From: Candidatus Micrarchaeota archaeon
GTDB lineage: Archaea > Micrarchaeota > Micrarchaeia > Anstonellales > Bilamarchaeaceae
NCBI GenBank assembly: GCA_038046805.1
Contig: JBBSVO010000002.1
Span: 16,684 to 80,683 of the forward strand
Length of the DNA: 64,000 nt
Direction of reading: 5' to 3'
Position numbers: made by a program. Below, one piece after another: positions 30,001 through 36,000 of this stretch (positions within the stretch are counted from its first letter, which is position 1; each line of letters opens with the position of its first letter).

Positions 30001-33000
30001 AAGAAATAAGAAAAGAGAAAAAACAGAGTAAGAAAAAAATGAGTGAAAACATGGCAAAACCAACACCTATAGTCCCATATCTTTCCCCGCTTCTTAGAAA
30101 ACTTAAACGCGGTCCTGCGGTAACGCTTCCAAAAGACGCGGGAATGTTCATCGCGTACACAGGAATAGGAAAGGAATCTCGCGTGATTGAATTAGGGAGC
30201 GGTTCCGGGTTTTTTACATCCCAACTCGCAAATATAGTCAAAGAAGTCATATCCTATGAAAAGCGGGACGAATTCCTGAAAATTGCCGAAGGGAATGTAA
30301 AACGATGCGGATTTACGAACGTAATTTTTAAGCACCGCGACGTTCTCGGAACGGAAGGCATCGATGAAAAGGACGGAACGTTCGACCTTGTTTTCTGCGA
30401 TATTGCCGAAGCTGAAAAAATTGTTCCGCACGCGCACGTTGCGCTTAAACCTGGCGGATTCCTTGCAGCGCATTGCCTTCACATAGAGCAGGCAAAGGCA
30501 CTTGTTCTTGAGGCGCAGAAAACCTTTAGCGAGGTAAGTCTGGTCGAAAACCTTGTCCGTGATTATGAAGTGCGGGATTTCGGAACACGACCAAGGCATA
30601 TGGGAATAATGCATACTGCGTATCTTGTTTTTGCGAGGAAATAAGGCGATCCCATGGCAGTGCAGATTTTTTCTAACAGAGGTAGAGCCGGAAGGTCAGA
30701 ACAACAAAAGCTAGTCGAAGCTGCTCAAACATTTGTTGATCTCAACAACATCCCTTCAGAAGCTCAGTTCGGACATTTGAAACCCAGATTATATGGAAGG
30801 CTAAAAGATAAGGGATTAGTTGAAAGGATAACCTTCGCGCGGAAAGAAGGAGGGCGAAAACCTGTAGGGATGGGTAAAAGAGACTTAATCGAAACCGCAT
30901 TACATAGAATAGATAACTTAGACCCTGGACCAAGAACTCTCGAAGCATTCCGAATTGAAGATCCGCATCTTGTCAGGGTTCTTGAACAACGCGAATTGCT
31001 TGAAACTGTAATCCGAATTGCAAAAAGAAAAAGGTTGATGGATTGAAACTCCTGTCAAATTGCAGAATGCGCTCCACGCTTCATCAATCTACAATTTTTT
31101 GAGAGATGTTTTAAACAGTTCCATATATTCTCTCTTTGGGTGTTTTTCATGGCCTTTTCAGACTTAAATTTTTTTACGTGTTTACCGGTACTGGTTTTTG
31201 GGATTATTGTTTATGCAGTTCTTGCAATAAAAGTAATACGGCCTGTAGAAAAAGGGCTTGTCGAGCGATTCGGAAAGTTTAGCCGCATCGCAGAACCTGG
31301 TTTATTGATCATAATCCCATTTGTTGAAAACGTCATAAACGTTCCAACAACGGAAATACGTGTTGACGTTGACGAACAGACTGTTATCACAAAGGATAAT
31401 CTCAATACTGATGTAGATGCGATAGTCTATTACAAAATACAGGATGTCATGAAGGCGATTTATAATATACAGGATTACAAGACAGCTATTCCTTCATTGG
31501 CTCAAACTACGCTTAGGGCGATAATGGGGCAGATGACTCTGACAGAGGCGAATGAAAATCGTCAGCGGATAAACCAGTCTGTTGAGCAAGAACTGGATAA
31601 GGAAACGAACAACTGGGGTATAGATATCATCCGCGTTGAGCTGCAAAAGATAGATCCGCCAGAAGACGTGCAGGGGGCAATGAATAACGTGGTCAAAGCA
31701 GAGAACGAGAAAATCGCGGCCATAAATCTTGCAACTGCTGCCGAAACGCGTGCGGATGGCGAAAAAAGGGCGAAAATAAAGGTTGCTGAAGGTGAGGCGC
31801 AAGCGGTGGAATTGAGAGCAGAAGCAGAGGCACGCGCAATCCAGCTTGTGCACGAAGCAGCCCAAAAATATTTCAAAGGAGATGCACAGACGCTTAAAAA
31901 GCTGCAGGTAACCGAAAAATCTCTTTCTGAAAACACAAAATATGTCATACCCAAGGGAACTGATATAACTGCCATCATTTCAGATACTGCGGGCGTTCTT
32001 CCGATTGAGAAAAAGAAATAGAGAAAAATTTGCAGGGGGCAGGAAATTCCGTCTTCCGTTCCGCGTTTTCAGTTTTGTTTGCGGAATGGAAAACTTTTGA
32101 ACCTACGAAGGTACTAAACCACGGCGTTTCATAGGGCTAAAATAAAAAAGCCCACCTAAGCGCCGCGCGTTTGGCCGCTCCGCCACCCCTGCGAGTTGAG
32201 ATACTTAATCTTCAAACAATATTTTAAATCCCCGCTTCGTTACTATTTTTATGTATCTAAAAATTCACAACGTGCGCGGAAAGAAGATTGTTGCGGCATG
32301 CGACAAGGATCTAATCGGAAAAATCATTTCTGATGGAAATGTTACGCTGGATTTGAACAGCTACGCCTCGTTCTATAAGGGCGATATTGCTTCAGATTCT
32401 GCCCTGGCAAAAGAGTTAAAATCCTTTGATTCCGCGAATTTAGTTGGGAAAAAGGTAGTTTCTGTGGTCGTATCTGTTGGCTTGGTAAAACAATCAAACG
32501 TTACTTATATAAACGACATACCTCATATCCAGCTATATAAATTATAGGGGGGTGGAATGTATGAAGTCAATAACTGTCGTAGCTGATGATAGAGTTGGAT
32601 TGCTAGCGGATATATCATACATTCTAGGAAAAGCCCGCATTAACATCGAATCTGTAAGTGTTGATTCAATAGGTGGAAAGGCAATCATTGTCCTTACCGT
32701 ACGAGATACGCAAAAGACGGCAGATGTCCTGCAAAAAAGCGGATACTCCATAAGCGAGGCCAATGTTCTTGTTGTAAAGCTTTCCGACCAGCCAGGAGAA
32801 CTTAGCAAGATAACTGCAATGCTTGTCGATGAAAAAGTCAATATCCAGAACGTACACATGCTTTCAAGAGATGGAAAACAAACTGTTCTTGCCCTGATGC
32901 TGGATAAACCAAAAAAGGCTGAAAAATTACTTGCGCCCTATCTTATCACAAGCGAGGAGTAATATCGGGCATCTAAACCTCTATTTCGATTTCTTTTTTC

Positions 33001-36000
33001 TTTTTATCAGTTATTTTTGTTTCATATCTTCTTAGTTCTTTATTATTTTCTGGATTTTCGAGATTTTGAATTCCAACATATTTTGCCTTTGAAAGAACGT
33101 GTTCTATTATCTCGTAATTCCCATAAATAAAATCACCGGTTTCTTTCAACTCTTTTTCCTGTGCAAGCGTTTCTGTGAGCGTTTTTTCCTGTTCAGCAAG
33201 ACGCCTTTCAAGTTTCACGAGCTTTTCGCTTTTTTTCAATTCAATGTCTGGTTCCTTCCCCTTGAAATAATAATCGTCCGCTGATTCTGAAATGGTTTTT
33301 CGTTTCTCGGCGGTTGTTTTAGCATAAATTATGAGTGGGCATACCCCATAATCACTAATCTCATCGTCTTTCACAAAAACAAACGCATCATGTGTGCCAG
33401 CAATATTTTTTAATTCGCGTTCAAGTTTACATGCCTCTTTTTCTGTTAGTTCACTCTCCGGCTTTTTTTCATCAATTCCGCATCTTGCGAGTAGTTCCTT
33501 TACGTATATTTTTCCCAGAGGGAGTTTCATAAGGCAGACGACTATATATTTTCCAGGAGAAGCTTTTCGTGCATCCTTGATATTACCCGCAATATTGGAT
33601 TTCGGGAACGAATATTTGACATTGCGTTTTATCTCGCGGTCTGCCCATCGTTCTTCCCTATAAGCGACTATCGTTGTTTTATCCTCTCCAGAGACCAAAA
33701 TCACGTTTCCCTTTGCGAACATTTCGAAAATAAGAAAGAGCATTTGTTTTTTCCCGCTTTCGTTCTTTCCTGCATCAAACTCAAACACGATTATCCTATC
33801 ATTGTTTTTCTGTTCAATCTTCATCAGTCGTGCGTTGTCAAGCTCTTTTTTCACTTTTTTTGCGAAGTTGTCCGCTTCGAGCGGTTCATCAATATATTTA
33901 GTGATATAAAGCCGCTTGCCGAGCTCGGCCGTTATATCCGAATTTCCAATCCTCAGCCTGTATCTTCCTTCTCCAAGCAGCTGAATGTTTGAAAAATGCT
34001 TTCCAATAAGGGATTGCAGCTCTGCAACTATAACGGAATATTCCAGATTCTCCATTGAACGCATGAGGTTATTGACGCATCTTTGTTTTTAATTGTATTC
34101 CGATAATTTATCTACATGGTTCCGAGCAGTGCTTCTGATGTTTCTCCCCTGTACCCAGAGCTTCTAAAGACTATGGACAAGGTTGAACTCGAAGAAGAAA
34201 TTAACAAAAAGATTTCCTCTTTCAATGGTCTTCTTACCCGGGATATTGCCCTAAAGATGATTGCCCGTGAGAAGGGAATTTATAAATCCGATCTGACTGG
34301 TTCAGGTTCTCGCGATTCTGTAATTAATGCCGCACTTTGTCGCATCTTGCCAGAAGAGAATTATAGAACTGGCAAGAGATCTCGAGCAATGGAAATAAAG
34401 GATTCTGATGGAAAAATTCGTACTCTCAGGCTTTGGAATGATGACGTCATTTTATTCGCAAAACTGCGCGTTGGAGATGAAATAACCATAAGCGGTGCAT
34501 ATGAAAAAAATGGGATTCTCAATCTTGGTTATTCTGGAAAGGTTTCAATTTCAAAGAGTGCATCATTTGCAAATATTGCGGACCTAAAACCCCTTCCAGA
34601 GAATTCGTCCGTAAGTATCAGTGGAGAGGTTATTTCACTAAATCCGGGCGTGTTTGAAGTCTCGGATGGTGTGTCCTCAGTCTCTGTTTTTGGGAATACT
34701 CAAACTACTCAAATTATCGCAGTAGGGGATAAAGTGATACTGGAGAATGCATTAACCGAGTCTGGAAATCTATGTTTTTCAGACAATTCGCGGCTTCTTG
34801 TCAAAAAGCCGAAGGCAACCGGTGCCGGTATGTCCGCAATGGGTAGAAAAGAGATTCTTGAATCAATGGGGCTAAAAGTGGCCGATGACATAACCCTGGA
34901 GACAATTGTCAATCTTAAAAAATCTTCCCTGTCCAATGCGAATCAGGGTAATCCCGTTTTGTGTGGTGCGTCTCATGTCTAATGCCAGTCTAAAAGTTGC
35001 CATCCGCTTGAACTGCGGTTCAAATCTCTCGAAAACGGCTGTTTTCTCGATCCGCTTGAAATTCGCTGCTGCTCATTTCAAATCCGGCAACTTTTTTAAT
35101 ATAATTTACCTTGGTGATGTCTATGTCTAATGCCAGTCTAAAAGTTGCCGAAGCCTTCCAGAACGATATCGGTAGAAATATTATTCGCATAGATTCAAAG
35201 GCAAAGAGCGAGCTTGGCATCTCTACAGGAGATATAGTTAAAATCACCGGAAAGAAATCTGCACTTGCAATAGTTTGGCAGGCACATCCGGATGATGAAG
35301 GCCTTGACATGATTCGCATGGATGGTATTCTCAGGCAGAATGCAAGCGTAGGGCTTGGAGATAAGGTAAAAATCGAGCCTGTAGAAACAAAAGAGGCAAA
35401 GAAAATTCTTCTTACACCCCGAGAACCAATGAGATACTCTCCTGGTTTTGATCAATATGTGAAAAAGCGTCTTGTCGGAAAGCCAATATTAAAGGGAAAT
35501 CTTCTTCCGGTAGGTATTTTTGGAACTTCGATTCCGCTTGTTGTTGCGCAAACATTTCCTCAGGGACCCGTTATAGTGGGGGAGACCACAGACTTAGTCA
35601 TAAAGAATGATCCAGTAAAAGATATCGGAAATGTTCCGAATGTTACTTATGACGATGTAGGCGGTCTGAAGGAAGCAATCAAAAAAGTTCGCGAAATGGT
35701 TGAGCTTCCGCTAAGACATCCTGAAATTTTTGAAAAACTCGGAATTGAACCTCCAAAAGGAGTTCTTTTGTATGGTCCGCCCGGCACAGGAAAAACCCTG
35801 CTGGTAAAGGCAGTTGCAAATGAGTCAGACGCAAATTTTATTTACATCGGAGGTCCGGAAATCGTAAGTAAATATGTTGGTGAGAGTGAAGAGCGCCTCA
35901 GGAAACAATTCAAGGAAGCAGAGGAAAACGCCCCTTCAATTATTTTCATTGATGAAATAGATGCAATCGCTCCAAAACGCGAAGAAGTTGTAGGCGAGGT

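Follow-up and report, generated by a model that had tools for sequence, protein, structure and literature searches.

In the 64,000-nucleotide window analysed here, from a Candidatus Micrarchaeota genome, a 363-residue open reading frame on the reverse strand (32973..34064) encodes the N-terminal half of the ribosome quality-control factor RqcH, comprising NFACT-N, HhH, coiled-coil helix 1 and the beginning of the M domain. The rest of the protein lies outside the window, on the forward strand of another contig of the same assembly (G000:C4:127369-128148, identical to L001:5370-6149), as a 259-residue open reading frame carrying the last M strand, coiled-coil helix 2, NFACT-R and NFACT-C. Against the 645-position archaeal RqcH model NF041120, the N half matched positions 3–364 (150.9 bits) and the C half positions 381–644 (270.8 bits); neither reached the curated cut-off of 400 bits, but their sum (421.7) exceeded it. 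PF05833 was divided likewise (model positions 8–365 on the window's contig, C2, and 368–436 on C4), and the one PF05670 match in the source genome fell on the C4 gene. The complete domain set of NFACT-N, HhH, CC-M, NFACT-R and C-terminal domain is therefore present, spread over two proteins, and sequence searches of the PDB with the halves matched NEMF and RqcH. The initial annotation was thus right that RqcH is split between these two contigs. It had described the C4 gene as the NFACT-R half; NFACT-R is indeed there, but the gene begins at the second M-domain strand and includes the whole second coiled-coil helix, so that the gap of about 120 residues implied by the earlier ranges is not missing.

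The source assembly is 86% complete in 16 contigs. Both genes lie far from the ends of their contigs (C2, 169 kb; C4, 161 kb), and a contig from a different run (X13) bridges the stop of the N half (32720–33017) with 0 differences. Searches by tblastn with four intact archaeal proteins as queries matched this genome at just these two loci. One RNA run that was mapped covered the neighbouring ACT gene and not the N half, and was uninformative.

Both halves retain the known functional motifs. In the N half, D89-R90 (33795..33800, reverse strand) aligned with the DR motif of NEMF and corresponds to D97/R98 of Bacillus subtilis, a motif with a tRNA-binding role in RqcH (10.1101/2020.09.03.281279); the arginine was present in all 51 split rows, with D (29), E (21) or Q (1) at position 89. 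E114 (33723..33725, reverse strand), the putative counterpart of the EIM-motif glutamate by alignment with a streptococcal homologue, was invariant in 30/30 rows of one alignment and in 51/51 split rows. In the C half, D105 and H109 were invariant in the same 51 split rows, and D105, F107 and H109, the DWH-type motif by which NFACT-R binds the ribosome (10.1101/2020.09.03.281279), in 45/45 C-half rows. The H109 column was also histidine in all 71 intact rows; this residue sits in an H-x-D motif, and yeast Rqc2 has serine in that column.

The split falls at a precise structural position. An AlphaFold2 model places coiled-coil helix 1 at residues 274–330 (33075..33245, reverse strand; helices 274–315 and 317–330), followed by terminal M-domain β-strands assigned by DSSP on the model (residues 348–353 and 358–362; 32979..33023, reverse strand). 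The TAG stop (32973..32975, reverse strand) then coincides, in a 122-row junction alignment, with a 2–3-residue surface β-turn of the M domain of intact RqcH, at the coiled-coil tip. Among 50 genome pairs from six groups, the C-half start codon was within −2 to +1 residues of a single register in 49 (exactly so in 44), while the last residue of the N half varied; a start codon was likewise found in this range in 30/30 distinct Micrarchaeota C loci. Helix 2 and the first strand were retained in every Micrarchaeota C half examined, and of four relatives with a short M, three (L042, L043 and L062) still have the hydrophobic-alternating stretch that ends the N half. The N half is far more divergent, with 23–37% identity to the query compared with 39–53% for the C half (locus rows).

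The claim that the split is phylum-wide held across Micrarchaeota. A stand-alone C half was found in 151/151 genomes (150 listed rows representing 149 genomes, with frames of 241–421 residues, plus G083 with 266 and G109 with 382) and a stand-alone N half in 150/151 (148 genomes from the main search, plus G129 and G061); we looked for an N half in G150 and found none. These counts include the source genome and one unpublished genome (G029), and 150 of the 151 have both halves. In six single-contig genomes the halves were 170–346 kb apart. Long N-half frames (500–827 residues) were considered as fused forms and rejected, as their NFACT-R lay on other contigs; follow-up of three of these found extended open stretches upstream in G090 and G085 and a TPR fusion in G031, with G134, G127, G047 and G055 left out. 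A gene for a cdc48/VCP-type AAA ATPase, oriented divergently from the N half, lies some 1 kb away from it (35111..37276, forward strand; an open reading frame named by likeness to L098:4539-6782, with Pfam CDC48_N and AAA). Conserved linkage of the two was rejected, since cdc48 was within about 1.5 kb of the N half at 1/36 Micrarchaeota loci; it was within that distance of the C half at 5/34 Micrarchaeota, 16/19 Iainarchaeota and 5/11 loci of a further DPANN phylum.

Describing the split as a Micrarchaeota trait, although correct in that it is fixed there, proved too narrow, as at least four DPANN phyla besides this one are cut at the same place. It was found in 50/50 Iainarchaeota and 42/48 Altiarchaeota; short forms were present in 117/120 matched Nanobdellota genomes, most with the same cut, and in 26/26 genomes of the further DPANN phylum, where the same cut is present. 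Aenigmatarchaeota were mostly intact (37/42), as was the whole sample of probable Nanohaloarchaeota (30/30); the DPANN sampling was without Undinarchaeota and Huberarchaeota. PF05833 matched in 45/45 other split-type genomes, 44 of which had an N-half match. In 7/7 examined genomes with a C gene devoid of helix 2, the N half was not found, which fits retention of the helix for the sake of its partner. Four records labelled ‘Methanosarcinales’ (G156–G159) would have placed the split outside DPANN; we rejected this, as the phylum sample of G157 comprises the same genomes as that of the nanoarchaeote G153, making the title a mislabel. That comparison was done for G157 alone, and the halves of G156 and G159 resemble those of G157. 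Viral contigs gave three loci and no split pair; two of the loci are long NEMF-like frames from giant-virus bins.

We consider it probable that functional archaeal RqcH/NEMF is made here as two separately translated subunits that re-join as a heterodimer. The predicted complex of the N and C halves scored 0.70, compared with 0.01 for the best control, on a scale whose mark is reached by 116/157 solved complexes and 2/215 mismatched pairs and whose calibration is only rough with our own alignments. Complex runs shared at least 75% of contacts, with partner pLDDT of at least 72. In the model, helix 1 (N residues 274–330) runs antiparallel to C-half residues 14–50, and C-half residues 1–11 contact N352 and N356–363, so that the antiparallel coiled coil with its M tip forms across two chains, although the score may reflect memory of solved intact RqcH/NEMF. 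Re-joining would thus proceed through a coiled coil with one helix from each subunit, and the M-domain β-sheet would be completed by the last strands of the N half and the first strand of the C half. By analogy with B. subtilis RqcH and Rqc2/NEMF, the dimer would bind split 50S subunits carrying peptidyl-tRNA, with NFACT-R of the C subunit contacting the A-site finger, the N subunit holding the tRNA anticodon arm, and a coiled-coil/M tip built by both subunits at the uL11 stalk base. Alanine-type tails may then be added without mRNA, followed by chain release (Pth2 is present) and degradation. Our literature search found no paper showing tailing by archaeal RqcH, nor an experiment on any split RqcH.

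Other accounts of the two genes were weighed against this heterodimer. That they are assembly artefacts or pieces of a decaying pseudogene might be suggested by the incompleteness and fragmentation of the source assembly and by breaks inside the N half in a few relatives (G152 and G156), but the Micrarchaeota counts and the single-contig genomes refute it: one cut is common to hundreds of genomes, the frames are open, the motifs invariant and the stop bridged by an independent contig, and we give this reading practically no credence. Covalent rejoining into a one-chain RqcH, through mRNA trans-splicing or a split intein, has a precedent of sorts in the trans-spliced tRNA halves of Nanoarchaeum equitans (PMC3655853); we nevertheless regard it as very improbable. 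In 50 cognate pairs, the longest complementary run between the 3′ end of the N half and the 5′ region of the C half averaged 6.96 nt, against 6.76 (s.d. 1.13) for non-cognate pairs, which shows no guide complementarity; the NF041120 matches and the junction alignment leave no extra sequence at either end for intein halves. The C half is also supplied with a start codon of its own in a fixed register, and the last residue of the N half varies. A third account makes the halves partly independent, dimerizing only sometimes, with a free C subunit acting alone, for example as a His-dependent peptidyl-tRNA hydrolase on the 50S subunit like Jlp2, the yeast solo NFACT-R protein that releases peptides through H44, a histidine that Rqc2 does not have (10.1101/2025.09.04.673968). 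The H-x-D context of H109 fits this, unlinked genes would allow separate regulation, and Pth2 was absent from 4/4 Nanobdellota with a minimal lone NFACT-R compared with 6/137 others. We think it unlikely, as the histidine is shared with intact RqcH and belongs to the ribosome-binding motif, helix 2 and the first strand persist in the Micrarchaeota C halves examined, and Pth2 is kept in Micrarchaeota (5/5) and in 3/3 Aenigmatarchaeota with a lone NFACT-R. The four Pth2-less Nanobdellota are probably kin and incomplete. Equating H109 with H44 is itself inferred, as no Jlp2/CCDC25 chain was among the matches of our structure-sequence searches to permit direct alignment. Nor is the C half a solo NFACT-R in the sense of having no NFACT-N partner, given that the partner gene is present in 150/151 Micrarchaeota.

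A combined scheme, in which the N+C dimer performs the tailing of stalled chains, the C subunit when free works as a Jlp2-like His-dependent hydrolase and a lone NFACT-R replaced Pth2 in one Nanobdellota lineage, strikes us as quite doubtful. If true, such a two-subunit switch would cast NFACT-R as a latent hydrolase of ancient origin, and archaea would have a new class of release factor. As a separate observation, that lineage, which on the combined scheme lost the N half, helix 2 and Pth2, has a lone NFACT-R fused once to Nudix and once to a GGxxQ-bearing, release-factor-like domain.

How often the split arose was addressed with gene trees, the first with 12 of the 122 rows dropped (near-duplicates and one misaligned row) and the others, like the AU tests, with 52 of 122 rows kept. 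Junction columns 470–596 were excluded. Five changes of state were needed in three trees. A single clade of all split forms was rejected (p-AU 6.5e-5), and a split G267 was nested among intact Aenigmatarchaeota. The M-domain turn may thus be a permissive fission site, and on these sequences the split seems to have had more than one origin in DPANN. It is possible that the gene split once, in a DPANN ancestor, and was later re-fused or replaced in Aenigmatarchaeota, probable Nanohaloarchaeota, some Altiarchaeota and a few Nanobdellota, though we think this the less probable history. The identical cut everywhere is consistent with it, as is a clade of Micrarchaeota, Iainarchaeota, the further phylum and split Nanobdellota, which was not rejected (p-AU 0.10); two trees also placed intact Altiarchaeota, most with a shortened turn, within the split ones (SH-aLRT 92 and 86), and for this phylum fission and re-fusion were not separated (p-AU 0.52). 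Against it, adding all Altiarchaeota to the four-group clade was rejected (p-AU 0.0069, LG+G4), the turn in most intact Aenigmatarchaeota and probable Nanohaloarchaeota is as long as that of non-DPANN archaea, and G267 would still require a separate fission.

The closest known systems are archaeal RqcH (NF041120; COG1293/arCOG01695) together with B. subtilis RqcH, yeast Rqc2 and human NEMF. The split form has their full domain set in the same order, as well as their DR, E(IM) and D-x-x-x-H motifs; it differs in being two chains from unlinked genes, each below 400 bits. The split is already in print for Nanoarchaeota under an older name, a ‘predicted RNA-binding protein’ encoded by NEQ438/NEQ506 and Nst1_176/Nst1_251 (PMC3655853, Table 1). 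The supplement of that paper assigns the Nst1 pair to arCOG01695 = COG01293, and RqcH is COG1293 (10.1101/2020.09.03.281279), which places the Nanoarchaeota gene in the RqcH family and bears out the suspicion in the initial annotation that the two are the same gene. The likeness of these published pairs to Micrarchaeota is known from the orthologous group, not the cut site; the Nanobdellota genomes that we searched are cut at the same turn. Eukaryotic Jlp2/CCDC25 (PMC4075521; 10.1101/2025.09.04.673968) resembles the C half in having NFACT-R without NFACT-N in one gene and, on the inferred match, the H-x-D histidine, but the C half keeps an M strand, helix 2, the C-terminal domain and a partner gene, and Jlp2, unlike the C half, originated as a duplicate while an intact Rqc2 persisted alongside it. 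Split AlaRS, reverse gyrase, topoisomerase I and Dph1/2 in DPANN (PMC3655853, PMC6349945) are likewise gene fissions whose products presumably reassemble in trans, in archaea with small genomes; they are cut between globular domains, whereas RqcH is cut inside the coiled-coil tip, and the RqcH split is far wider, with five phyla having a split majority.

As each half falls below the family cut-off, surveys of presence and absence can score DPANN as being without ribosome quality control. That unrelated clades are cut identically urges caution about treating shared split sites as rare genomic markers, a use that has been argued for in Nanoarchaeota. The pattern of lone NFACT-R with Pth2 loss is a lead towards an archaeal Jlp2-like release factor. 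A two-piece RqcH would mean that the protein can do without a covalent link at the coiled-coil tip, despite the large scissor-like movements that the coiled coil makes during tailing (10.1101/2020.09.03.281279), and the natural halves would be separable subunits with which to test which one binds the 50S subunit and which brings the tRNA.

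We located RqcH, the archaeal ribosome-rescue factor, as two genes in the Micrarchaeota genome G000. The gene for the N half lies on contig C2, at 32973–34064 on the minus strand of the window (363-aa ORF; NF041120 positions 3–364, 150.9 bits), and that for the C half at 127369–128148 on the plus strand of contig C4 (259-aa ORF; positions 381–644, 270.8 bits), NF041120 being the archaeal RqcH model, with 645 positions and a family cut-off of 400. Coverage of the model by these two ORFs bears out the initial annotation, which had proposed a two-gene RqcH; neither genome-wide PF05670 and PF05833 searches nor tblastn using four intact archaeal queries revealed any other RqcH-like place in G000. 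The N-half stop codon was bridged with 0 differences by a contig from a separate sequencing run (X13), and near relatives of the C half are labelled Micrarchaeota by their sources. The C4 gene had been described as the NFACT-R half; NFACT-R is indeed there, but the gene is larger, aligning from residue 461 of human NEMF and 361 of Bacillus subtilis RqcH, starting at the second hairpin strand of the M domain and including coiled-coil helix 2. Because the C gene extends beyond NFACT-R in this way, almost no part of RqcH is missing.

Divergent from the N half, with 51 bp between starts, is a plus-strand ORF (34116–34982) without a Pfam match, whose product resembles an OB-fold RPA-type protein. 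The window also holds three related plus-strand ORFs with Cys-rich repeated segments (26388–27965, 38969–39787 and 39747–40643), the first two without a Pfam match at E ≤ 0.01.

The split had also been claimed to be phylum-wide, and this held in 151 Micrarchaeota genomes from 20 families (G000 plus 150 evenly drawn, at least 80% complete, including the unpublished G029). Short-frame NFACT-R was found in 151/151 (149 genomes as 150 listed rows of 241–421 aa, plus G083 and G109) and the N half in 150 (148 in the first search, then G129 and G061), G150 being the sole genome in which it was not found. Split RqcH is real and fixed among the sampled Micrarchaeota. Halves on the same contig were 6–924 kb apart (25 pairs, picked by eye), and 170–346 kb apart in six single-contig genomes. 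ThiI adjoins the C half in 14/34 Micrarchaeota C loci. The C half of G109 (L362:1357–2469) carries a Gly-rich insertion of ~55 residues within NFACT-R. At L285:860–3292(−), on G031:C2, the N half continues in frame for ~450 residues, with TPR repeats at the end, preceded by a stretch that looks transglutaminase-like; either a genuine fusion or loss of the stop could explain this long frame.

The cut falls at one place. C-half start codons share a single register in 30/30 distinct Micrarchaeota C loci, and all examined C halves retaining helix 2 have the same start place across phyla. Junction alignment mapped this to a 2–3-residue beta-turn linking two strands in intact proteins, with the start codon −2 to +1 residues from the cut register in 49/50 genome pairs. 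No sign of inteins or trans-splicing guides was seen at the junction. A single Bathyarchaeia rqcH has an in-frame TAG precisely at the M-domain hairpin (L088:2998–3000), with no start codon after it, representing either an error or an early fission step.

Other phyla were sampled via named loci, and genomes were classed by how long the frame holding their best NFACT-R match was, from stop to stop. Short forms were found in all 50 matched Iainarchaeota (of 51; 190–343 aa), 42 of 48 matched Altiarchaeota (of 51; the six intact forms all confirmed, with both halves in one frame), 117 of 120 matched Nanobdellota (of 141; three intact) and 26/26 genomes of a further DPANN phylum, that of G160. Stand-alone PriL, described as a DPANN Cluster 1 trait (PMC7414124), was present in two of three G160-phylum genomes tested. 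Among Aenigmatarchaeota, 42/61 genomes scored above the cut-off, 37 long (15 checked, intact) and five short. The G164 phylum, whose acidic proteins suggest Nanohaloarchaeota, had intact RqcH in 30/30 matched genomes (of 31). Split rqcH also occurs under ‘uncultured Methanosarcinales’ titles (L101, L120, L129 and L142; genomes of 0.9–1.3 Mb), of which the tested G157 shares a phylum sample with Nanoarchaeota. At loci L153:1121–2181 and L161:1420–2571, breaks in the N half near residue 107–110 occur in G152 (frameshift and missing sequence) and G156 (two stops), and contigs of G155 and G162 stop at roughly the same place; these are probably assembly errors. Giant-virus bins in IMG/VR (L064:1070–2575 and L065:1648–3804) contain long NEMF-like frames matching both parts.

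Trees of both halves combined, with junction columns removed (FastTree, LG+G4 and LG+C20 PMSF), mostly recovered phyla and needed five split/intact changes in each of three runs. In AU tests (LG+G4, 52/122 rows), a single clade of all split forms was rejected (p-AU 6.5e-5). Of two clades picked after the tree was seen, Micrarchaeota, the G160 phylum, Iainarchaeota and split Nanobdellota with all Altiarchaeota was rejected (p-AU 0.0069), and the same without Altiarchaeota was not (p-AU 0.10); nor was monophyly of split Altiarchaeota (p-AU 0.52). G267 is the firmest case of a recurrent split: its cut is at the same turn, but it groups within intact Aenigmatarchaeota (SH-aLRT 98–99 in two trees; 87–93 in the mixture-model tree). 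Micrarchaeota, Iainarchaeota and the G160 phylum cluster together (89–98). The gene cdc48 lies beside the C half in 5/34, 16/19 and 5/11 of their loci, respectively, and topA is often nearby too, giving a topA–C half–cdc48 neighbourhood common to Iainarchaeota, some Micrarchaeota and the G160 phylum (L098:939–6783; L192–L206 and L319–L332). Shared grouping and neighbourhood fit one fission in the ancestor of these three phyla. In G000, cdc48 is instead near the N half, the sole case among 36 N loci. Overall, the split is widespread and probably recurrent in DPANN.

In B. subtilis RqcH, NFACT-N and HhH are reported to bind the tRNA anticodon arm via DR and EIM motifs, the DWH motif of NFACT-R to touch the A-site finger and the distal CC-M to touch uL11/H44 (10.1101/2020.09.03.281279). 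Because of these contacts, the split would by analogy assign tRNA binding to the N subunit and one ribosome contact to the C subunit, with the stalk-base contact at the N/C junction. These motifs are conserved: R90 and E114 of the N half and D105 and H109 of the C half are invariant in 51/51 split rows, and 50/51 have D or E at N-half position 89. In yeast Rqc2, Ser stands in place of the His of the C-half H-x-D motif; this His is not particular to the split form, because 71/71 intact rows have it too.

AlphaFold2 modelled the N half with a mean pLDDT of 91.9, a long helix (274–330) and terminal strands (348–353 and 358–362). A complex model of C1–185 with N250–363 scored 0.70 versus 0.01 for the best control, a mark attained by 116/157 solved complexes and 2/215 mismatched pairs, with at least 75% contact agreement between runs and partner pLDDT of at least 72. 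Modelled contacts join C14–50 with N278–332 and C1–11 with N352–363. The score indicates compatibility, not binding, because split-gene halves can pass through likeness to solved intact structures. The N half was not found in 7/7 examined genomes with a helix-2-less C gene (G319, G287, G305, G429, G408, G354 and G409; all incomplete assemblies), a joint absence that hints at independent support for pairing. A heterodimer is the most likely reading of split RqcH, and we consider it probable. Pth2 was present in 5/5 Micrarchaeota tested. Tailing by split RqcH is an inference.

Some genomes have NFACT-R alone. Three Aenigmatarchaeota encode only NFACT-R and the C-terminal domain (~220 aa; L280:2824–3483, L281:1700–2362(−) and L282:1915–2604(−)); all three lack helix 2 and an N half and have Pth2, and the His is gone from one. 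Minimal lone NFACT-R proteins, with no N half found, occur in four Nanobdellota (G429, G408, G354 and G409; L283:3042–3443, L284:3110–3520, L371:1963–2769(−) and L372:2088–2807), two of them encoded near the eS19 gene. That of G354 is a Nudix fusion, and that of G409 has an extra N-terminal domain with a GGxxQ-like motif, which gave no Pfam match and which we take to resemble VLRF1-type release factors. Pth2, found in 131/141 Nanobdellota, was not found in these four, versus 6/137 others; the four are incomplete and may be kin. Yeast Jlp2 is described as a solo NFACT-R protein, with nascent chains released through H44 (10.1101/2025.09.04.673968, preprint).

For Nanoarchaeum equitans (NEQ438/506) and Nst1 (176/251), Table 1 of PMC3655853 records a shared split site in a ‘predicted RNA-binding protein’, and the text of that paper describes such genes as unsplit in every other archaeon. 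The paper’s supplements place both Nst1 genes in arCOG01695, equal to COG01293, and RqcH is COG1293 (10.1101/2020.09.03.281279); a split of the RqcH family was therefore already in print, as the initial annotation had suspected. Split RqcH is thus a variant that had previously been recorded in Nanoarchaeota by an older name, without a link to ribosome quality control. The portions available of PMC4075521, PMC6349945, PMC8407392, PMC6514570 and 10.64898/2026.05.13.725050 do not mention it (a scope without Baker 2010, Waters 2003 and the data tables of PMC7414124), and our literature searches found no paper joining ‘RqcH’ with ‘DPANN’ or on the activity of archaeal RqcH. Here the split gene is given a functional setting, its cut is mapped to one beta-turn, and its spread across DPANN is shown to be wide and probably recurrent.
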